Counted from the first letter of the whole stretch, positions 14,882-59,527 are shown. The stretch: DNA of 63,496 nucleotides, filler included, from Stramenopiles sp. TOSAG23-2 (GCA_900128395.1; 21 parts of 21 records of this genome joined end to end with filler, not necessarily neighbours in it), one strand, 5' to 3'. Notes: generated by a model not told the origin, from the sequence alone. Numbers and translations: made by a program.

Positions 14882-15315
14882 AATTTATATATCTTAATTT
14901 TATATATTATATATATATATAATCTCTCTCGTATTTTGTCGTACACACCTCCCCTAGAAATCATCAACAATCTCAATCAAAATCATTACGCGAATCGTAT
15001 ATATATATCATATCAATTATCATATCATTCACATCATATATAAAATACAAATCACATACATTTTACGAATACACACCATCTGCGAAATTCCATGCATCTG
15101 GATTATGCGTTTNNNNNNNNNNNNNNNNNNNNNNNNNNNNNNNNNNNNNNNNNNNNTTAATTAATTAANNNNNNNNNNNNNNNNNNNNNNNNNNNNNNNN
15201 NNNNNNNNNNNNCTATCTATTTATATCTGCTTCGTCCATTAGTAGCCAAATAGCATTGTAACTATCATTAGTAGGCGAATAGCATTGGCAGGCGAGTATG
15301 TCCCCACGGGGGAAA

Positions 15316-15325
15316 GGGACAAAGT
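15316..15325 (+). promoter_or_regulatory. GGGACAARGT upstream motif, copy 1 (inverted copy tgtccccacgg at 15299-15309)
   Basis: The same motif sits 60-100 nt upstream of three consecutive ORFs (15316, 16710, 17183/17205). Confidence 0.55.
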
Positions 15326-15390
15326 ACATGTTTCCATATATACCGTGAAATAAAATAGTTAGTATATATATACACAAAAAATCTTATAAA

Positions 15391-15837
15391 ATGTTCAGTA
15401 AAGTAAAAAAGTTATCCCAAAACAACACAGCAACCATGCAAAGCAAACGTACCCACTCCGAAGTCACGGAAAGTACCCCAATGACATCCAATGCGTCAAA
15501 AAAGCAAAAAACCGGATCTGGTCCAAAAAAGTTATATATGATGCATGAATTCGATTCCACTGAAATTGCGGTCGTGGTCGCAAAGAATACTCAGCAGGAA
15601 TTGGTACCGAAAATGGTACAAAAAGGACAAGAGGATAGCAAATATCCACTTCAAGTCAACACACCTGTAGTCTCTGTCCAGTACAGTGACATGAAAAAAG
15701 GTGGCGACGAAGGAAAATTTGGTAAAATCAGCAAAGAAGCATCCTACAATTTGAAAGTTAGAAGAGGATTAAGCGAGCGTGTAGCACAAGCATTACCAGG
15801 TACAGGTATATACCATGGGTATAAAGTCAAACAATAA
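15391..15837 (+). pseudogene. Truncated virus-like ORF, possibly an ssDNA-binding-protein-like N-terminus, interrupted at about 15799 by the TIR repeat
   Basis: The last residues (GIYHGYKVKQ) come from the repeat. YPLQVNTPVVSVQY loosely resembles the xxxTP motif of large-DNA-virus SSB-like proteins (weak). Confidence 0.4.
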
Positions 15838-16019
15838 ATATTCTGGGGGGGGTAAAAAAAAAAAAAAAAAATGAGTCAAAACCACACCCAATGGTATGTA
15901 AGCCTATTTAACCCCTGCTGTGTAGTGTTAATGTATTAGCTTTACATAGCATTAGAGCCCAAAATAGAAAATAATATATTTCTGGGGGGGCAGAATATTT
16001 TTTGTTTGACTTTATACCC
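15799..16019. repeat. Partial second copy of the TIR element at 16380-16680
   Basis: About 220-nt near-identical direct repeat of 16411-16631, differing mainly in poly-A length. Confidence 0.9.
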
Positions 16020-16379
16020 TTGCTGTGTACCTGTATATATTACGGGGGAATACCGCAAGGCTACGGCTTAAAATGGAGCTAAAAATGTAACACTACGATC
16101 TAAAATTAGCACCATATACCATTACAATGCTATTCCTATCGCCGTTAATGCTAACTCCATGTAAAAAATATTTAGCAGGTAAATATAATGTAAATTAAAA
16201 AACTTTTTTTACAATGCTATTCCCATAGTATTATTATTAATAGGATAAGCTTTTGTATGTTGTATTACATATTTATCTTAAAACGTATAATGTCCACAAT
16301 GCTATTCCCATAGTATTATTATTAATAGCATTAAAACTCAATCGATAACAAAAAATATCGATTTTTATCATATATATAT

Positions 16380-16680
16380 TATATACCATAATACTATTTC
16401 CTCCGTAATAGGTACAGGTATATACCATGGGTATAAAGTCAAACAATAAATATTCTGGGGGGGGTAAAAAAAAAAAAAAAAAATGAGTCAAAACCACACC
16501 CAATGGTATGTAAGCCTATTTAACCCCTGCTGTGTAGTGTTAATGTATTAGCTTTACATAGCATTAGAGCCCAAAATAGAAAATAATATATTTCTGGGGG
16601 GGCAGAATATTTTTTGTTTGACTTTATACCCATGGTATATACCTGTACCTATTACGGAGGGAATAGTATCATGGTATATA
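16380..16680. mobile_element. MITE-like / foldback element with 78-bp terminal inverted repeats
   Basis: 16380-16457 and 16603-16680 are reverse complements with 3 mismatches. The 145-nt core is non-coding; flanks are TA-rich. Confidence 0.75.
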
Positions 16681-16709
16681 TAATATATATAATATATATA
16701 TATACCGTA

Positions 16710-16719
16710 GGGACAAAGT
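16710..16719 (+). promoter_or_regulatory. GGGACAARGT upstream motif, copy 2
   Basis: ccgtagggacaaagt versus ccgtggggacaaggt at 17200. Confidence 0.55.
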
Positions 16720-16810
16720 GACAGATTCACATGTATATATATATATATTTACATAATTTTATAGTAGACAATGAAATATTTTAATAAACTTCATGATGCA
16801 TTAGAACACG

Positions 16811-17098
16811 ATGGTGGTCCCACTAGAAGCGTATACCAATGTGGTATACCGAAAAAAGATGCAACCAGACACTATTTTATTCCTTCGTTTCAATAATTGG
16901 TTCCATGCATTTCATCAAGACGCGGATGTCATTCGATCGATATTTGATGTAGAATATGACCCCGGGAATGTTGCACGGGTAAGCATACATTGTATGTATG
17001 TAGAATCATTATTTGAAACGATAGAATCGGAAAATTACGAAAGTGATATTTTTTATTTTATGCATACCAATGTTAACATGGTAATGTGGACGAAGTAG
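16811..17098 (+). CDS. Stand-alone MutS domain I-like small protein
   Basis: KKMQPDTILFLRFNNWFHAFHQDADVIRSIF matches the MutS_I pattern KxxxPDxILFFRxGDFYExFxxDAxxxxxxL; no ATPase domain follows. An out-of-frame ATG at 16771 may be the original start. Confidence 0.55.
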   Translation: MVVPLEAYTNVVYRKKMQPDTILFLRFNNWFHAFHQDADVIRSIFDVEYDPGNVARVSIHCMYVESLFETIESENYESDIFYFMHTNVNMVMWTK

Positions 17099-17182
17099 AT
17101 TTTAAGGTGTGGTAAAATAATTTTTTTATACTATATATTGTACTTACTAGAATAATAACGCTTTCCTAAGACATCATACCAT

Positions 17183-17214
17183 GGGGACAAGGAATACCTC
17201 CGTGGGGACAAGGT
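17183..17214 (+). promoter_or_regulatory. GGGACAARGT upstream motif, tandem copies 3 and 4
   Basis: ggggacaagg at 17183 and ggggacaaggt at 17204, 70-100 nt upstream of the CK1 ATG. Confidence 0.55.
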
Positions 17215-17282
17215 ACATATACACACCCACATATACATATATACATACACGTATATAATATACAAATAATAAAAAAAAAAGT

Positions 17283-17702
17283 ATGGAACTCCTCGTTGGT
17301 AAGAACTACCGTTTAGGTCGTAAAATTGGAAGTGGCTCGTTTGGGGATATTTACTTAGGAACGGATAGATCAACAGGGGAGGAAGTTGCAATCAAATTGG
17401 AATCGAGAAGAGCTGCTCAACCACAATTAATATACGAATCAAAAATCTATAAACTTTTGAATGGTGCAAAAGGATTTGCAAATGTACGTTGGTACGGAAT
17501 AGAAGGAGATTACAATGTAATGATCATCGATTTATTAGGTCCGTCTTTAGAAGACTTATTCAATTTTTGTTGGCGTAAATTTAGTCTAAAAACTGTTCTG
17601 ATGATCGCCGATCAATTATTATCACGTATTGAATATTTACACAATAACAGGTTTCTTCATCGCGATATTGACACGGGTACCGGAAAAGAAAGAGAAACGT
17701 AA
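17283..17702 (+). pseudogene. Casein kinase 1 family, N-terminal half only (breaks off after HRDI)
   Basis: [39 protein letters not shown] and [12 protein letters not shown] are CK1 signatures; KPDN, DFG and the C-lobe are absent. Confidence 0.9.
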
Positions 17703-17886
17703 GAGACCTAGGAATATTGCAATTAGTATAAACAATATATCGGAGATAGGCATTGATTATTCGTGTCCATCCTGTGGTAAGAGCACCAATATCAAGTCTA
17801 CTACGTCCATTCAATGCATTCATTGCGACCACCGGATATTGGAAAAACCTCGAATAAACAAGGCAATAACATTAAATGCAGTATAA
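17670..17886 (+). pseudogene. Divergent RNA polymerase subunit RPB12/RpoP-like zinc ribbon (5' end lost at the junction with CK1)
   Basis: YSCPSCGKSTNIKSTTSIQCIHCDHRILEKPRINKAITLNAV* fits YxCxxCG-x9-IxCxxCxxRILxKxR-x7-A of RPB12. Confidence 0.7.
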
Positions 17887-18251
17887 ATAAGGGTCATGAT
17901 CAATTTTGAATAGGTGGTACATGATGGGACCTCTCCCTCTATTTTTCAACACCCACATACACTCACACGAATGCCATTTCTACACTTTTTTATTATATAC
18001 AAAGCTGAAAGCAATACATAAAAGTCGTATACTGATCACCTGAACATTTTCTGATCGTTCTCCTGTCCATACACCACATATATGTCGAGCTTGACCCCGA
18101 TATGTGATTTTCAAGATCGGGTTAGTTTAGGGTTAGAGCCCAAAAAATCACNNNNNNNNNNNNNNNNNNNNNNNNNNNNNNNNNNNNNNNNNNNNTTAAT
18201 TAATTAANNNNNNNNNNNNNNNNNNNNNNNNNNNNNNNNNNNNNNNNNNNN

Positions 18252-30387: not shown

Positions 30388-31992
30388 GATTTTGTTGATA
30401 TTGCCTGGCTTGAAGAACTTTCATCTCTTTATTCATCTTACACGCGACAATTGCGTAGACCCAAAAACAAGATGTGGCTGAAAGTAAAACCATGCTGTGG
30501 TCGCCTTGGTAACAGGTTGTTTCAATTGGCATCTGGATATGGTATTGCAGCAACACATGGTGCCATTTTGTGTTTTCCAAGATGGCGAATGACTCTTTTG
30601 CCTACCTTACTCCAAGGCCCCTTTCCTCCCGATTGTCCCAACGTGTTTCCGCAACATCCACACTATGAAGCGGGCAATTCCATGTTCCAACATTTTCCGA
30701 AAAGGGACAACATGTTTGTGGGTACGTATCTGCAGTCGTGGCGTTATTTTGACTTCATTAAAGAGGATATTAGGAAACATCTACATATAAAAGAGGACAT
30801 TAAAAGACAAGCCGAAGATTACGTAAGCGCACACGGTGGTACTTTAAATACGGTGGGCATCCACGTACGTAAAAACTATGAAGATACTAACCTAAAATTT
30901 CCACCAGAAACATACTTTGAACACGCCATGGGACATTTTCAAGGTGGCGTACGCTTTATTGTTGTGAGTGACAACGCTACTTGGTGTACGGAACAAACAA
31001 TGTTCAAACGTCCCAACATCCACATCATTACGGCGCCCCATACCCCTGCGTTGGACTTGGCAATTTTGGCGAGTTGTGACGCAGTTATTATGACTATTGG
31101 TACCTTTGGATGGTGGGGTGGATGGTTGTCTGGCGGCGAGGTCGTGTACTACAAAGACGCGTTTTTGATGGACCATGAGTTAAACAAAGGCAAGGTGGTG
31201 GTGGCGGACCACTATCCGGAGGAGTGGGTGGGTCTGGGAATGAATTTGTTTGACATAGTTATACCAGTTGGACCAAATGATAAAGATGTTATCAAAGAAC
31301 AAATAAAGTATACTAAAAAAAATATAATTGGTTACAGAAATATCTATTTGATTGTTTATGATCCATCAATAAAAATAGATGGGTGTATTACCATTAATGA
31401 GAACATTTTCCCTTTTAATATAGAAACAGTTTCTAAATATCACGGAAAATTACGGAGAAATGGATGGTATTTACAGCAATTATTGAAATTATATGCGGGT
31501 AAAATCATCCCAGATATTTTAGATAAATATTTAGTAATTGATAGTGATACATTTTTCTTGAAACCAACAACTTTTATAGAAAATAATAAATGCTTGTATA
31601 ATTATGGTAGAGAATACCATAAACCATACTTTGAACATATGATAAAATTGGATAAAGGTTTGAATAAAATTTATGGAGATAAATCTGGTATTTGTCATCA
31701 TATGATATTTGAGACAAAATATATAGATGAACTTATTTCTAGAATTGAGATAAACCATAATGATTTATTTTACAACGTATTTTTAAAAACGGTAACGGAT
31801 AAAACCGGTTCTGGTGCTTCGGAATATGAAATTTATTTCAACTATATGTTAAAGTATAATCCAGATAAAATAAAAATTAGAGGATTAAACTGGAAAAATA
31901 CAAATAAACTAGAAACAAATTGGAATGGAGATTATATATCATGTCATTGGTGGAATGCAATAAGCGGAGAAATAGTATGGGGCCGTACATGA
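30388..31992 (+). CDS. Multidomain glycosyltransferase: GT11 alpha-1,2-fucosyltransferase-like domain fused to a GT-A-like (DUF6492-type) domain (5' partial)
   Basis: GRLGNRLFQ, VGIHVR and DLAILASCDAVIMTIGTFGWWGGWL (GT11), then FDIVIPVGPND, GWYLQQLLKLYA, YLVIDSDTFF (DxD) and ASEYEIYFNY. The frame is open to the contig edge. Confidence 0.85.
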   Translation, partial: DFVDIAWLEELSSLYSSYTRQLRRPKNKMWLKVKPCCGRLGNRLFQLASGYGIAATHGAILCFPRWRMTLLPTLLQGPFPPDCPNVFPQHPHYEAGNSMFQHFPKRDNMFVGTYLQSWRYFDFIKEDIRKHLHIKEDIKRQAEDYVSAHGGTLNTVGIHVRKNYEDTNLKFPPETYFEHAMGHFQGGVRFIVVSDNATWCTEQTMFKRPNIHIITAPHTPALDLAILASCDAVIMTIGTFGWWGGWLSGGEVVYYKDAFLMDHELNKGKVVVADHYPEEWVGLGMNLFDIVIPVGPNDKDVIKEQIKYTKKNIIGYRNIYLIVYDPSIKIDGCITINENIFPFNIETVSKYHGKLRRNGWYLQQLLKLYAGKIIPDILDKYLVIDSDTFFLKPTTFIENNKCLYNYGREYHKPYFEHMIKLDKGLNKIYGDKSGICHHMIFETKYIDELISRIEINHNDLFYNVFLKTVTDKTGSGASEYEIYFNYMLKYNPDKIKIRGLNWKNTNKLETNWNGDYISCHWWNAISGEIVWGRT

Positions 31993-32776
31993 TGGGTGAA
32001 ATCAAAAAGACATAAACAACAGGAAAAGGTGACCTTGCACATTTATATTATTAATCTTGAGAAACGTCGAAAACGATATGATTTGTTGCTCCAAAATTTA
32101 AATAAGATGCTTTTACCTGAAAACTGAAAATTAGATATCAACCGTGTCAATGCATCTGCTGGTAACGAAAGAAATTCATCTACCTATAGTAATTGGCGTA
32201 CAACAAATGCCCACCATGATGGTAAAGTAGACGAAACCCAGAAATATTGGATTAGGAATGTAACAAACGGAGAGATAGGTTGTTATATGTCACATGTAAA
32301 TACCATCATAAACACAATTGCACCATACAACACAAATGATTTACGAAAACATTACTTTTTAATGTTGGAAGATGATGCTAACTTTAATACATTTGAATTA
32401 GCATTTGAAATCAAAACCAGATTAATATCATTACCAACAAATTGGGATCTCTTTTATTTAGGTTATGCTTTTGTAAACAATAAACACAGAGTCATAAACG
32501 AAAATATATACAAATGCGGTTACACCTATCAAACCCATGCATATATGATCACAAAAGAAGCCGCACAAAAAATAGCTAGAATAGATAATATTTATGATGA
32601 TATAGTAGCTTATGATGAATTTTTATCATCCATTCATAAACAGCATCCTAGAGAAGATATGAATAATTTGTATAATATAAGGGAAGAATTCAATTTTTAT
32701 GCTTCACAAGATATAATTGATATGGCAACGTAAAGTCTCTGAAGGAGGCGATGGTATACATGATTCTAAAAATTGA
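31993..32776 (+). pseudogene. GT25 glycosyltransferase domain, in frame with the upstream GT ORF but disrupted (TGA 31990, TGA 32125, frameshift near 32715)
   Basis: IYIINLEKRRKR, GEIGCYMSH, LMLEDDA, WDLFYLGY and YQTHAYMIT; the alternative-frame tail reads IWQRKVSEGGDGIHDSKN*. Confidence 0.8.
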
Positions 32777-53427: not shown

Positions 53428-54457
53428 TTAGCGTGGTATCTGTACGGTGCCACTTTTCCCTTTTCTAAGGTCACCGTGTCCAGTCTTAGAGATTACATTG
53501 CCCTTTTCATCAAGTACAACTACAAAGGCTCCATAACCAGACTGTTCTCTATGGAACTCCACGGTACCACCCGCAATAACTGGCGCAATGATCTCAGCAC
53601 CCTCAGCACTGGGACCAAATCTACCTTTGGCATCATTCTTGAGTGGTATGTAATAATCCATACTTCTCCATCCACCTCTAGGTGCATGAGCCCCAAACAC
53701 TCTCCTCAGTAGAGATGCCTTCTGACTGTAAGATGCGTTAGGATCATAGACCAAACCAGATACTGCTGAATTAGAGAATTCAACCACTCTTCCCTGTTTA
53801 GCATAAGCAACAGCCATTGAATCAACCATAGACACTGCCTTTTCCATAGGTATGTCAGCTTTAATCTTAGTATCAATATGATATTCAGAACTACCACCAA
53901 TATACTGACGAGGACCAGTAACTAGACCAGTATTATATGCTCTATGTTCTGGTGTACCCTCTGTGCCACCACCGTTATTATTTGATGATTCATTGGATAA
54001 AGTGGGTTCTGGCGTATTTTTTGGGCTTGTATCCTCACCACCATTTTTGTTATTGGGTGAAGTGGGTTCTGGCGTATTTTTTGGAGTTGTATCCTCACTA
54101 ATGGATGATCCTGTATTGTGCAGTACCTGCTGTTCAAGGTGATCTCTAGTTGTATCAATTGCAGTATGGACTTTGTCCAAGTTGCTTCGTGTTCCTTTGA
54201 CCAAGTAGTTTTTAGTAGTATCAATTACAGCACCGACTTTGCCAATGTTGCTTCGTGTTCCTTGTACAATGTAGTTTTTAGTCGTATCAATTGCAGTATG
54301 GACTTTGTCCAAGTTGTTTCGTGTTCCTTTTACAATGTAGTTTTTAGTCGTATCAATTGCAGTATGGACTTTGTCCAAGTTGCTTCGTGTTCCTTTTACA
54401 AAGTAGTTTTTAGTCGTATCAATTGCAGTATGGACTTTGTCCAAGTTGTTTCGTGTT
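53428..54457 (-). CDS. Protein with tandem 22-aa amphipathic repeats, Pro/Thr linker and C-terminal M23-peptidase-like domain (5' partial)
   Basis: LDKVHTAIDTTKNYIVKGTRNN repeats, EDTxPKNTPEPT x2, and a C-terminal domain with AH...MDYY, AEIIAP, GYGAFVVVLD and KTGHGD. Confidence 0.75.
54150..54457 (-). repeat. Coding 66-bp tandem repeat (at least 4.5 copies, truncated by the contig end)
   Basis: Unit gtcgtatcaattgcagtatggactttgtccaagttgtttcgtgttccttttacaatgtagttttta. Confidence 0.92.
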
Positions 54458-57946: not shown

Positions 57947-59527
57947 TTACTGTCGTAAATATAAAAAAACTGCGAGGACGAGGGAGATTACCAACCGATA
58001 TGGCAACTCTCCTATTTGGCATATTATCCGCTTATAAATTACATCTATCGTTGTTTTCGTATTTTGTTCCTTCACTGGCTCTAGAACTAGAAAATCGCTG
58101 CACTCGTCTTTAATACTAAGGATATATTTGTATCCCTCCTTATTATCCGCTTCTACGTGTGTATAATCGCAATGTATCGTTCCCCAAATTTGCTGATTTA
58201 CCAACGATGCTGGGACTAACGTTGTTTGATGAACCGCTGTGGTTTTCCCTTTCTTACAATGGATGCATGTATCAATAAATTCCTTGATATCTTTTCTCAT
58301 GCCCCTCCAGTAAAAATTTTTACTAACCTGCTCGTAAGTCGGCTCCAACGACTGATGTGCTACTTGTAGCTCATGGTGGTAGTATGATATCAGATCGTCT
58401 TGCAGTTGAGCTGGTACTACTATCGCTGGTGGTTTGCGCTCTAACCGATTTTGTGTTCTGCCTTTTTCTAGTCGAATTATCGCCGTATGTACCAGTAGGC
58501 CCTTATTGTCTATTTCAAACCTCCTTGTCCACCTGTTGTTCTTTCCCTCCTTAATTTGTTCGATTATTTTGCCTGTTAGGGAATCTGTCCTCTGGGCTGC
58601 TTTCATTTTTGCTACCGTGAACTTCCTTGGAATTCGATATGTTACTGTGGTTTTCACTCCGTTGACTTGCTTCCCTGTCTTGGATTTCACTTCTTCCGCT
58701 TTTAGCGCCATTACCTTAATATTTGATGAGTTTAAGGATGTTTCTTCCTTTGACCATTTTGCCGGTTTTGTCTTCCAGTAGGTTATTGGAATTTCCGATT
58801 TACCGGTTTTATGATATACGTCAACTAAATTTAAGTCATCGCTATAAAGGTTAATTTCAAAAGTTTTATATACTCGCTGTTGGTGATTATGCTTCACCCC
58901 AACGTGTCCGTTTACAAATTTCGTTATTGCCGCCGTTACTGATGCTTTCGCTGTGCCCTCCGGAATTCTAGACATGTGATCTGCATCTGTATGTTTCGCC
59001 CCCGCTCTGTGGCTTAATATGATGTTGTATTCACTTATTCGACATGCCCATCGAATCATACGTCGCTTATGTTTTACGTACTGATTCAGTCGCAACAAGT
59101 TTGCATGATCTGTTACGACGTATAGCTTGTCGCCCAAAAAATGCCTCCACTTTTCTAATGCCCATAACAATGCTAAGCATTCCAGCTCCCGCGCATCGTA
59201 ATTTTTCTCTGCTGGGCTAAGTGCTCGACTCGCATACCATACAACATGTAGCTTCCCGTCTTTTCCTTTTTGGTTTAAAGTTGCACCCAGACCATGATAT
59301 ATCTCTTTTACCCCTCCTTCCGGATCCCCACTCCCGGTTTCTTTAAACTGAGTATCCTGATTATTTGCTTTGGCTTTTCCTCCACACCATACTTTGCCTG
59401 CCCATATGCCCTCTGCATATCCGTCATTGTTATTTTTTGAATTGTTTTTCTTGTATTGTTGTTTGTGTTTTCTTTTTCTTTTTATTTCTTGTCCTTTTGT
59501 TTTGCGCGTTGATGCGCTTCCTAGTCA
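57947..59527 (-). mobile_element. Ty3/Gypsy LTR-retrotransposon pol remnant: RNase H (partial), HHCC zinc finger, truncated integrase core
   Basis: HGLGATLNQ..VWYASRALSPAEKNYDARELECLALLWALEKWRHFL, VTDHANL, RWACRISEY, HRAGAKHTDADHMSR, HH..AH..FYWRGMRKDIKEFIDTCIHC, IHCDY and YKYILSIKD. RNase H before integrase is Gypsy order. Confidence 0.92.

Follow-up and report, generated by a model that had tools for sequence, protein, structure and literature searches.

Positions 15213-18151 of a stretch of joined contigs from Stramenopiles sp. TOSAG23-2 contain truncated genes of virus-like appearance, closely packed and in part preceded by a common sequence word, and they raise the question of whose DNA this is and whether its gene order is natural. 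The first-pass annotation had read the region as a virus-like gene cassette with its own promoter motif, decaying in the protist genome or co-assembled with it. In this study, we concluded that the contig is probably DNA of a mirusvirus-like marine virus, recovered with a single protist cell and joined chimerically, a reading we hold with reasonable rather than high confidence.

The contig and its gene pieces

The window, that is, the whole stretch of 63,496 nucleotides analysed, consists of 21 unlinked contigs of about 2.9 kb each, in descending length, joined by N/TTAATTAATTAA linkers. Positions 15213-18151 are exactly one 2,939-bp contig, with a linker of 44 N, TTAATTAATTAA and 44 N on either side, and therefore it has no physical linkage to anything outside these limits. 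It carries five gene pieces, all co-oriented:

15391-15798, + strand: first 136 codons of a gene for a gp2.5-type SSB of about 320 aa (ORF1), by homologues and the fold of full-length relatives
16772-16850, + strand: fifth fragment, first 26 codons of an unnamed ORF, with its ATG at 16772
16850-17098, + strand: small ORF resembling MutS domain I, a weak PF01624 match
17283-17666, + strand: casein kinase 1 (CK1), residues 1-128/129, by Pkinase profile and CK1 delta match
17667-17886, + strand: 3' part of an RPB12/RPABC4-like gene with a zinc ribbon, stop codon at 17884-17886

Four runs were compared with the contig, two of DNA (X2 and X3), one of RNA (X15) and one of polyA RNA (X17).

ORF1 is 99% identical to the homologue P0001, which goes on in frame, and 84% identical to the full-length homologue P0015. 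Full-length relatives measure 293-321 aa; these proteins of about 300 aa have a disordered basic N-terminus and end in a short aromatic/acidic tail, e.g., VPYIEF or VPYDF. The AF2 model of full-length P0015 reached a pLDDT of 83.9, and Foldseek matched it to T7 gp2.5 (1je5, E 4e-7), Enc34 SSB (5odj, 9e-7) and ASFV CP312R (8hw5, 9e-5), as well as to many giant-virus proteins in BFVD, including NCLDV proteins of the DUF2738 type, one of which bears that name. The modelled fold confirmed ORF1 as the start of a gp2.5-type SSB with an OB-fold core of gp2.5 topology, as the earlier call of an SSB-like ORF had supposed, with ssDNA binding as its putative function. This assignment holds through the full-length homologues only, the window itself encoding residues 1-136. 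The fold is that of T7 gp2.5 and the Nucleocytoviricota DUF2738 SSBs (PDB matches at E 4e-7 to 9e-5), but identity of the family to its structural matches is only 9-16%; no Pfam family, DUF2738 included, was found among 10 members at E <= 0.1 or for P0001 at E <= 1, and there was no PHROG match of note.

The RPB12 piece scored 32.9 bits against PF03604 (cut-off 24), which upholds its earlier naming, and it matched PDB RPB12 chains at E 2e-5 to 3e-4; its zinc ribbon has two CxxC pairs, CPSC and CIHC. An in-frame ATG is absent within the window. Contigs of X3 and X17 carry 17667-17902 with other sequence before 17667 and after 17902, and the sequence that they have upstream extends the protein in frame.

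The kinase piece is likewise what it had been taken for, as a fragment. It matches CK1 delta residues 1-130 at E 3e-58, equivalent to a CK1-type N-terminal lobe, and only positions 1-124 of 263 of the Pkinase profile, the catalytic domain being incomplete: the frame leaves CK1 inside the catalytic loop, after HRDI, at 17666. Its nearest matches are cellular CK1s of stramenopiles, which are 76-80% identical (80% for the best full-length relatives among unnamed ENA proteins, 76% for those of diatoms), and no full-length relative at >= 90% identity was found. Its codon-usage score leans weakly virus-ward. There was no meaningful depth over 17075-17662, which comprises CK1 and its promoter, in the four runs compared; RNA traces there amounted to <= 0.76, in three of six bins. 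The kinase presumably belongs to the virus, which may have captured it, although host DNA joined to the contig may be its source instead.

The MutS-I-like ORF spans 16811-17098 as read in the window; other runs contain it from about 16850 on, and a Met codon lies at 16859. Its score against PF01624 was 19.6 bits, below the cut-off of 20.6 (E 1e-3), and neither a longer homologue nor a PDB sequence match was found. In the Atlas, the protein is represented from residue 17 onward, and its look-alike clusters there carry MutS_I (score 0.91; 158-160 shared features, below the guide value of 170). The single-sequence AF2 model had a pLDDT of 51 and a helix/strand order compatible with domain I. The lone MutS-I of the first-pass annotation is thus weakened to a marginal call, to which the Atlas look-alikes point and for which the profile score falls short. 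An X3 contig covers 16850-17002, preceded by 28 other letters, and an X3 contig matches the fifth fragment only over 16760-16850, differing on either side.

Viral relatives and affiliation

Independent marine metagenome contigs of the same strain and of a sister strain (L006-L009) show what surrounds the SSB gene elsewhere. The same-strain contig L008 matches 15213-15798 at 99.3% and then continues into an intact SSB gene, which is also present in other assemblies. In the sister strain (L006, L007), genes are laid out compactly on two strands and a TBP gene (E 1e-49) adjoins SSB; a 1,122-aa ORF is divergent from SSB, with the same synteny in the IMG/VR contigs L002 and L004 (L007 and L002 proteins 37% identical over their full length; L004 homologue about 40%). 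The IMG/VR contigs that encode relatives of the SSB measure 19-134 kb and have viral gene content; the 134-kb record G002 encodes TBP, two heliorhodopsins, M16 and C1 peptidases, RNR and part of Rpb1. Capsid_NCLDV, VLTF3, A32 and PolB gave no match in G001 and G002 (9% and 27% complete by CheckV), the MCP search having been run without a positive control ring, and no HK97-type capsid, portal or terminase genes were seen in L006-L009. Taken together, the gp2.5-type SSB, the metagenome contigs of both strains and the IMG/VR relatives show a viral origin of the contig and support the proposal that an uncharacterised large DNA virus was its source. The virus of this contig is present in many marine metagenomes.

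The choice between Nucleocytoviricota and Mirusviricota had been left open. Mirusvirus core functions enriched over Nucleocytoviricota are, in the part of PMC10132985 available, TBP (59% vs 0%), heliorhodopsin (64% vs 5%), M16 peptidase (60% vs 2%), trypsin and histone. Those seen here occur in the relatives only: TBP in L006/L007 and G002, heliorhodopsins and M16 in G002. In the G002 fragment of 134 kb, 27% complete by CheckV's estimate, neither trypsin nor histone was found. This gene content supports a better fit of the relatives to Mirusviricota, Nucleocytoviricota fitting less well, and this exact strain may be a mirusvirus too. The label draws on the TBP gene beside SSB and on relatives whose SSB is 44-46% identical. 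Besides the TBP neighbour in the sister strain and the gene content of G002, likeness to Mirusviricota (Gaia et al., 2023) lies in the marine setting and in the occurrence of copies both in DNA runs and in RNA libraries, polyA-selected ones included; a gp2.5-type SSB, RPB12, CK1 or a GGGACAAAGT-type motif is not mentioned for mirusviruses in the available part of PMC10132985.

Could the contig be viral DNA that became endogenous in the protist genome and is decaying there, as had been suggested? Its gene fragments are truncated, one of them without a start codon, CK1 is closest to cellular CK1s of stramenopiles, and for stramenopile protists both integrated and episomal mirusviruses are on record (PMC10827195; PMC12606086). 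We consider this improbable, and the idea of decay was abandoned: environmental copies match the SSB fragment at 99.3-99.7% identity, no fragment has internal stops, intact genes circulate in metagenome DNA and RNA-library contigs, and the contig has no identifiable host gene or host repeat, its matches to the 20 other contigs being confined to low-complexity sequence. Hardly any of the contig's words occur in the one other run that is labelled as this organism. Their scarcity is weak evidence, such genomes being incomplete.

A shared motif upstream of the genes

Three upstream regions of the contig carry the same word:

15213-15390, + strand: SSB upstream region, with two ATAGCATTG boxes at 15250 and 15279
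15316-15325, + strand: motif GGGACAAAGT in the SSB upstream region
about 15363-15372, + strand: TATATATATA run in the SSB upstream region
16705-16850, + strand: motif CCGTAGGGACAAAGT (core 16710-16719), a TATA-like run and the start of the unnamed ORF
17179-17282, + strand: motif GGGGACAAGG twice, at 17183 and at 17204, with a TATA-like run, before the CK1 start

GGGACAARGT occurs at 15316, 16710 and 17205, always on the + strand; the ATG that follows stands at 15391, 16772 and 17283, at a distance of 75, 62 and 78 nt, respectively. The rest of the 63.5-kb window holds no copy; 0.12 copies were expected in the window, and none of 100 shuffles reached three. The motif noticed at first is therefore real and, within the window, confined to this contig. 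In L006-L009, seven of the eight occurrences of GGGACAA lie 47-76 nt upstream of ORF starts, at five distinct genes (background rate 4.6%; P 3e-9), which agrees with its description as a virus-type upstream element. The SSB upstream region is 99.3-99.7% identical to L008 and L009, both of which extend further upstream, and its GGGGACAAAC core is kept in the sister strain L007. The exact word is absent from L001-L005, the relatives at 44-46% SSB identity, and the motif is thus lineage-specific.

If all fragments were the protist's own genes, the motif would be a host promoter element. CK1 is indeed canonically eukaryotic, with 76-80% identity to cellular proteins, and AT-rich ACATATA-type runs stand upstream of start codons in some other window contigs. 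Such a purely cellular origin is nevertheless very improbable in our view, since the motif is absent from the 160-nt regions inspected upstream of 14 gene starts in other window contigs, and four of the five occurrences of GGGACAA[AG] in the window fall within 15213-18151, one in the approximately 57 kb outside it. The phage/large-virus gp2.5 fold of the SSB family and the IMG/VR contigs of its relatives, with their viral genes, speak against it as well.

Judged by its placement, the motif looks like a promoter-proximal element of this viral lineage, and it may function as a promoter. The arrangement comprises a lineage-specific element RTRGGGACAAANT, which precedes start codons by about 50-80 nt, and after it a TATA-like run; the virus encodes its own TBP. 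Promoter motifs shared within giant-virus genomes, such as the early motif WWWWWTGWWWWW (PMC11502894), are similar in that many start codons of a compact genome have the same short word before them, at a near and fixed distance. GGGACAAAGT differs in being G+C-rich, in lying 47-78 nt upstream and in preceding a TATA-like run, in a virus with TBP. A GGGACAAAGT-type promoter motif was not described in the literature searched.

Repeats and foldback elements

Between and behind the gene pieces lie repeats:

15798-16048, unstranded: copy 1 of repeat D1, 251 nt long and with inverted ends of about 45 nt, starting exactly at the SSB frame break
16122-16331, unstranded: unit with the reverse complement of the ATAGCATTG box, three copies 85-87 nt apart
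16356-16704, unstranded: foldback element with 102-nt arms, 90% complementary, enclosing D1 copy 2
17957-18151, unstranded: high-copy repeat at the contig end, holding TTAGAGCCCAAAA

D1 copy 2 (16410-16660) is 97% identical to copy 1, and a D1-like copy (88.8%) stands in L009 upstream of another promoter. The DNA fold of the foldback element was computed at -92.5 kcal/mol (z -16). Since the D1 copies are 97% alike and the arms are 90% rather than 100% complementary, the repeats are natural. Parts of the repeats at 16122-16331 are covered by X2 and X3 contigs. The TTAGAGCCCAAAA of the contig-end repeat also occurs inside D1; summed contig depth over this repeat was 290-580 in X2, X3 and X15, its copies being mostly 90-95% alike, and it gave no Rfam or tRNA match. 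Depth of the SSB and RPB12 pieces was about 6-10 in the DNA runs X2 and X3.

Baculovirus homologous regions (hr) and the MITE-like repeats of giant viruses invite comparison, the elements here being dispersed imperfect palindromes of about 250-350 nt upstream of different genes' promoters. They differ in that copies were seen in this strain only, not in the sister-strain contigs L006 and L007, and their function is putative.

Junctions and the order of the pieces

The other runs have contigs that part from the window sequence at 15798 (X2, X15) or 15790 (X3), at 16760 and 16850 (X3), and at 17667 and 17902 (X3, X17). At 15798, those of X2 and X15 go on with the natural SSB sequence. The gene-truncating breaks noted earlier are thus borne out at 15798/9 and 17666/7, and further ones lie at 16760, 16850 and 17902. 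No contig of the four compared runs bridges any junction that it reaches, and the notion of a natural gene cassette fails on this point. Because the junctions are absent from other runs and the SSB gene is intact elsewhere, the contig is a mosaic, and the order of its pieces is probably not the native gene order of the virus. Depths of the SSB and RPB12 pieces match in three runs (9.6/10.2, 6.7/6.35 and 7.0/6.8), which we counted in favour of the same entity. As the 20 other contigs have intact ORFs (unbroken up to 965 aa), dense chimerism is special to this contig.

Chimeric rearrangement arises in multiple displacement amplification (MDA) of single-cell DNA, and the resulting chimeras are mostly inverted. 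The contig resembles them in its junctions unseen in other samples and in about 3 nt of shared letters read at the CK1/RPB12 junction. It departs from them in having at least five junctions within 2.9 kb while 20 other contigs look intact, and in the common orientation of all pieces, for which simple arithmetic gives a chance of about 1 in 16 under random joining.

Chimeric joining is most likely the cause of the junctions. Viral DNA, fragmented or replicating in the sorted cell, would have been joined during whole-genome amplification and assembly, with at least five junctions connecting 90-600-bp pieces of different loci. The SSB gene start, the RPB12-like gene end, the small MutS-I-like ORF, the dispersed foldback repeats and the lineage-specific promoter-proximal element are real viral features. 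The thought that the contig might be an MDA chimera of host loci was therefore half right: it is a mosaic, but of viral loci.

The mosaic could instead be real DNA, that is, a rearranged or defective viral genome, or scattered duplicates of promoter-plus-5' units, formed by illegitimate recombination at foldback repeats. Independent assemblies also contain truncated SSB 5' parts joined to other sequence (P0002, P0004, P0009, P0012, P0014, L009 and an X3 contig), cut at 15538, 15560 (twice), about 15775 and 15790; L009 and X3 join the unit to the same partner gene at different points, and the partner in P0002 reads, from its translation, as a reverse-complement motif. X2 depth over 15213-15408 is 1.3-1.8 times that over the rest of the gene, and L008 and L009, about 90% alike upstream, are about 99.5% alike from 15213, the contig start, onward. 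The naturalness of the repeats and the co-orientation of the pieces point the same way. However, the contig's own junctions were unseen in the four compared runs, P0009 fuses the SSB 5' part to a bacterial-type ABC ATPase and shows that artefactual joins with this gene occur, and the form that replicates could not be a genome in which SSB, kinase and RPB12 are truncated. We regard a real mosaic as unlikely, though deserving of serious weight. That promoter-plus-5' units of several genes of a circulating mirusvirus-like virus are variably cut and rejoined one way between foldback repeats in the cell itself is a notion to which we would give slightly less credence still.

Implications

With chimeric joining as the preferred reading, a small contig within a concatenated "unplaced" pseudo-scaffold can be a mosaic when the single-cell genome was amplified, and the order of its genes should not be interpreted biologically. 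If the promoter-plus-5' units were real, defective or rearranged viral genomes would be common enough in the sea for repeated assembly, or a host locus would archive fresh virus fragments; the footprint would be the SSB 5' units that recur, truncated at different points, in assemblies independent of each other. The gp2.5-type SSB family, missed by Pfam, could act as a marker gene, and the GGGACAAAGT element with its TATA-like run and a viral TBP is a candidate promoter grammar for the lineage; GGGACAAAGT could also serve as bait for more contigs of the same virus in fragmented assemblies. Mirusvirus hosts are mostly unknown, and a single-cell genome with 99.3-99.7% identical copies of this virus's genes gives a testable virus-protist association, which could reflect infection, ingestion or persistence.

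The Contig and Its Gene Pieces

The segment at 15213-18151 was exactly one contig of the window, 2,939 bp long, within a series of 21 contigs of ~2.9 kb each, arranged in descending length and joined by linkers of 44 N, TTAATTAATTAA and 44 N. Because the 21 contigs are separate, findings that span a linker have no physical linkage, and neighboring contigs are uninformative in this respect. Its G+C content (0.32-0.34) was the same as that of the other contigs. Rfam and tRNA scans of this contig gave nothing above chance, and the following features were recognized:

15391-15834, ORF1, an SSB-like fragment without a Pfam family
15798-16048, repeat D1 (251 nt), copy 1, starting at the exact break of ORF1
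16410-16660, repeat D1, copy 2, inside a foldback
16811-17095, MutS_I-like ORF
17283-17699, Pkinase (CK1), Pfam profile positions 1-124 of 263
17665-17883, RPB12 zinc ribbon (PF03604)
17957-18151, high-copy repeat

The 136-codon fragment of ORF1 was 99% identical to P0001, an assembled protein representing 31 member sequences, which runs on in frame beyond the break. A scan of all representatives gave 36 matches at E ≤1e-3 and delineated a family of ~290-320-aa proteins, including the full-length P0015 (84% identity to the ORF1 fragment), with a short aromatic/acidic tail at the C-terminus of its full-length members. The family had no Pfam or PHROG match. P0015 was modeled with AlphaFold2 from an alignment of 23 members (pLDDT 83.9, pTM 0.77), and Foldseek matched this model in the PDB to T7 gp2.5 (1je5, E 4e-7), phage Enc34 SSB (E 9e-7) and African swine fever virus (ASFV) CP312R (8hw5, E 9e-5). 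Among the top-50 matches in BFVD, the named ones were mostly giant-virus proteins, including Clandestinovirus DUF2738, EsV-1-76, FirrV-1-I1, mimivirus R506 and ASFV CP312R, together with several phage SSBs and unnamed entries. Judged from this modeled fold, ORF1 is predicted to be the start of a gp2.5-type SSB, and the label "SSB-like" given to it in the first-pass annotation was appropriate.

The remaining gene names of that annotation fared differently. RPB12 was confirmed by a score of 32.9 bits (cut-off 24) and by similarity to solved RPB12 chains (E 2e-5), and the piece had no start codon within the window. Casein kinase 1 also held, as an N-terminal piece matching CK1 delta residues 1-130 (E 3e-58), with the CK1 frame lost after HRDI. 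For the lone MutS-I, the match to MutS_I was marginal, at 19.6 bits under a cut-off of 20.6. The Atlas entry of this ORF begins at its residue 17 (Met), and its look-alike clusters consist of 72-104-aa proteins with MutS_I in some of them; the ORF may therefore be a small stand-alone one. A search of IMG/VR with 8-mer peptide patterns found no close relatives of the SSB, RPB12 and CK1 pieces or of the MutS-like ORF.

Viral Source and Relatives

Words of the contig were present in 20 of the 22 public runs listed. One small run, probably the source run, held 0.90 of them, 13 marine or seawater DNA runs held 0.26-0.41 each, and six RNA runs held 0.09-0.16. Four loci (L006-L009) were recovered by scanning metagenome contigs from JGI. 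In L008, which belongs to the same strain, sequence matching 15213-15798 at 99.3% was followed by an intact SSB gene; the 3' end of a leucine-rich-repeat gene lies upstream of SSB in L008 (1-300) and in L009 (1-291), also of the same strain. In L006 and L007, representing a sister strain, the SSB protein was 84% identical and compact intron-free genes lay on both strands, among them those of a PQ-loop protein and a TATA-binding protein (TBP; PF00352, E 1e-49), as well as a 1,122-aa ORF divergent from SSB.

Four IMG/VR contigs, 19-134 kb in length, carried more distant SSBs (44-46% identical), and a 63-kb contig carried a fifth (27%). The large ORF is one of a conserved set of 1,107-1,153-aa proteins, located as follows:

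L007, 834-4202, - strand
L001, 6012-9443
L002, 5977-9438
L003, 5983-9444
L004, 6221-9616
L005, 3856-7179

Its gene was divergent from the SSB gene in L001-L004 and L007. The L007 and L002 proteins were 37% identical over their full length, and the L004 homologue aligned at ~40%. L002 and L004, which share this pairing, both have RNA polymerase Rpb1 domains, a C1 peptidase, a VWA protein and a dNMP kinase as neighbors, with a BT1 transporter in L002 and ribonucleotide reductase in L004. The 1,122-aa ORF had no Pfam match and no PDB sequence match; words resembling Walker A/B and SF3 helicase motif C were seen by eye. These words make a helicase-primase likelier than a capsid protein, which had been considered first, so that the ORF possibly encodes such an enzyme.

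The 134-kb IMG/VR record G002 (27% complete by CheckV estimate) contained TBP, two heliorhodopsins and an M16 peptidase; Capsid_NCLDV, DNA_pol_B, VLTF3, A32, histone, trypsin and RPB12 were not found in this partial record. In the available sections of Gaia et al. (2023; PMC10132985), TBP is given for 59% of mirusviruses vs. 0% of Nucleocytoviricota, heliorhodopsin for 64 vs. 5% and M16 peptidase for 60 vs. 2%, and C1 peptidases and ribonucleotide reductase are named among mirusvirus functions. On this gene content, set against those sections, the relatives resemble mirusviruses; with regard to the window's own strain, the sole evidence of this kind is the TBP neighbor in the sister strain. 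No capsid-module gene was seen. We conclude that the contig comes from an uncharacterised large DNA virus of marine waters that is mirusvirus-like, judged by its relatives. The viral reading of the first-pass annotation was correct.

Mosaic Structure of the Contig

Contigs of two DNA runs (X2 and X3), a metatranscriptome run (X15) and a polyA RNA run (X17) were aligned to 15213-18151. At 15798, X2 and X15 continued with other sequence, whose in-frame residues were those of P0001 after position 136, and at 15790 X3 went on with sequence identical to L009 912-941. In X3, 16760-16850 had other sequence on both sides and 16850-17002 was preceded by 28 other letters. The RPB12 piece (17667-17902) was preceded in X3 and X17 by identical other sequence that extends the frame upstream, and was followed by other sequence in both. 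None of the junctions was bridged by contigs of these four runs, indicating that at least six pieces, 90-600 bp long and derived from different loci, are joined in the contig; what had been taken for a gene cassette is a mosaic. The SSB and RPB12 pieces had matching depths (9.6 and 10.2 in X2, 6.7 and 6.35 in X3, 7.0 and 6.8 in X17), and so belong to one entity. Elsewhere in the window, the 20 remaining contigs have long uninterrupted ORFs, up to 965 aa, so that joins at this density are peculiar to the viral one.

The 17957-18151 segment is a high-copy repeat. Its contig depth summed to 290-580 in the marine runs, both DNA and RNA, ~50 times that of the SSB and RPB12 pieces in X2 and X3 (about 6-10). 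Its copies were 90-95% alike, and within it are a CCCGAT...ATCGGG hairpin and the word TTAGAGCCCAAAA, the latter present in D1 too. The two D1 copies were 97% alike; the foldback around copy 2 has 102-nt arms that are 90% complementary (DNA fold -92.5 kcal/mol, z -16), and part of copy 1 (15801-15898) had zero cover in X2, X3, X15 and X17. An IMG/VR search with a 25-nt word of D1 gave no match. The contig had no repeats in common with the 20 other contigs, where only low-complexity TA runs matched.

The first-pass annotation had offered a decaying endogenous element as one reading, which the data did not support: the SSB fragment was 99.3-99.7% identical to environmental copies, the gene fragments had no internal stops, the contig had no host gene or host repeat, and natural unbroken forms occurred in RNA-library contigs. 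The observation made in that annotation was itself largely real.

As to the cause of the mosaic, we somewhat favor the view that the joins are chimeras formed in whole-genome amplification and assembly, for which viral DNA that was fragmented or replicating in the sorted cell would have served as template; the source was presumably an amplified single-cell genome, judging from the 8-million-letter source run and a remark in the first-pass annotation. A clear chimera of assembly or amplification exists in a public data set, namely P0009, in which the SSB start of a related strain runs into the C-terminal half of an ABC ATPase of bacterial type. Other observations speak against a pure artefact. 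The SSB 5' unit was cut elsewhere and joined to other sequence in P0002, P0012, P0014, L009 and X3, and carried an internal in-frame deletion in P0004. L009 and X3 had one common partner for this unit, namely an opposite-strand ORF of 196 aa that is preceded by a motif of its own and a D1-like repeat. Furthermore, all five gene pieces of 15213-18151 were in one orientation, and L008 and L009 were ~90% alike upstream of the position matching 15213, the exact contig start, and ~99.5% alike from there on. Ciliate germline scrambling, a nucleomorph and gene capture by a Helitron or Pack-MULE were dropped as explanations, as was the idea that the motif derives from cDNA or an adapter, given the standard code and long open frames in the window, the placing of the motif ahead of TATA-like runs and start codons in metagenome contigs of independent origin, and the viral gene content of the relatives.

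The kinase piece could be read in two ways, as host DNA that became joined downstream of a viral promoter or as a strain-specific kinase gene captured by the virus. Its closest full-length relatives were unnamed ENA proteins (80%) and proteins of diatoms and other stramenopiles (76%), with no relative at 90% among the best 120 of 7,900 matches. A doubled viral motif and a TATA-like run lie upstream of it, and 17075-17662 (third motif and CK1) had no depth in X2 and X3, with RNA traces of ≤0.76 in three of six bins. Its codon-usage score (+0.011) was nearer to virus chunks (+0.019 ± 0.038) than to host chunks (-0.051 ± 0.047), a hint only, as codon usage at 128 codons separates weakly (score >0 in 11% of host vs. 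63% of virus chunks). We lean towards capture by the virus, with the host-piece reading as the less likely of the two.

Other Contigs of the Window

The contig at 30388-33316 has two intron-free glycosyltransferase genes without poly-Asn tracts:

30388-31989, GT11 and DUF6492
32128-32730, GT25

Pairs of glycosyltransferase genes are common in giant viruses and bacteria, and therefore this contig may also be non-host. An ORF at 53428-54457 (- strand) contains ~5 tandem 20-aa units (TRxNLDKVHTAIDTTKNYxVKG) and, after them, a globular C-terminal part; no Pfam family matched this ORF, and its composition differs from that of the poly-Asn host genes. At 57947-59521 (- strand) lies a pol fragment of a retrotransposon, in which RT-RNaseH, the zinc-binding domain of an integrase and an rve core were recognized.

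A Shared Upstream Motif

The shared upstream motif proposed in the first-pass annotation, GGGACAARGT, was found on the + strand at 15316, 16710 and 17205 and nowhere else in the window (three seen vs. 0.12 expected; three reached by 0 of 100 shuffles). From these copies to the ATGs downstream of them, at 15391, 16772 and 17283, the distances are 75, 62 and 78 nt, respectively, with a TATA-like run in each interval, and four of the window's five GGGACAA[AG] were within this contig. The motif preceded none of 14 gene starts on the other contigs (160-nt upstream regions examined). In L006-L009, seven of eight GGGACAA sit 47-76 nt upstream of a same-strand ATG-started ORF of at least 50 aa (chance of a qualifying position 4.6%; binomial P 3e-9), or five of six with SSB counted once; the genes behind them are SSB (three loci), the 1,122-aa ORF, TBP, a 189-aa ORF and the 196-aa ORF. 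The extended motif word is approximately RTRGGGACAAANT. A second box, ATAGCATTG, had five of its seven occurrences in the window within this contig, and AATAGCAT occurs three times upstream of SSB in the sister strain. The exact motif word was not in the 44-46% identical SSB relatives, and no description of a mirusvirus promoter motif was found in the accessible parts of the literature searched.

GGGACAARGT is a genuine promoter-proximal element of this lineage, and a promoter function would be in keeping with its position, the TATA-like run and the virus's own TBP. Of the new items that the analysis yielded, this promoter motif is the most useful.
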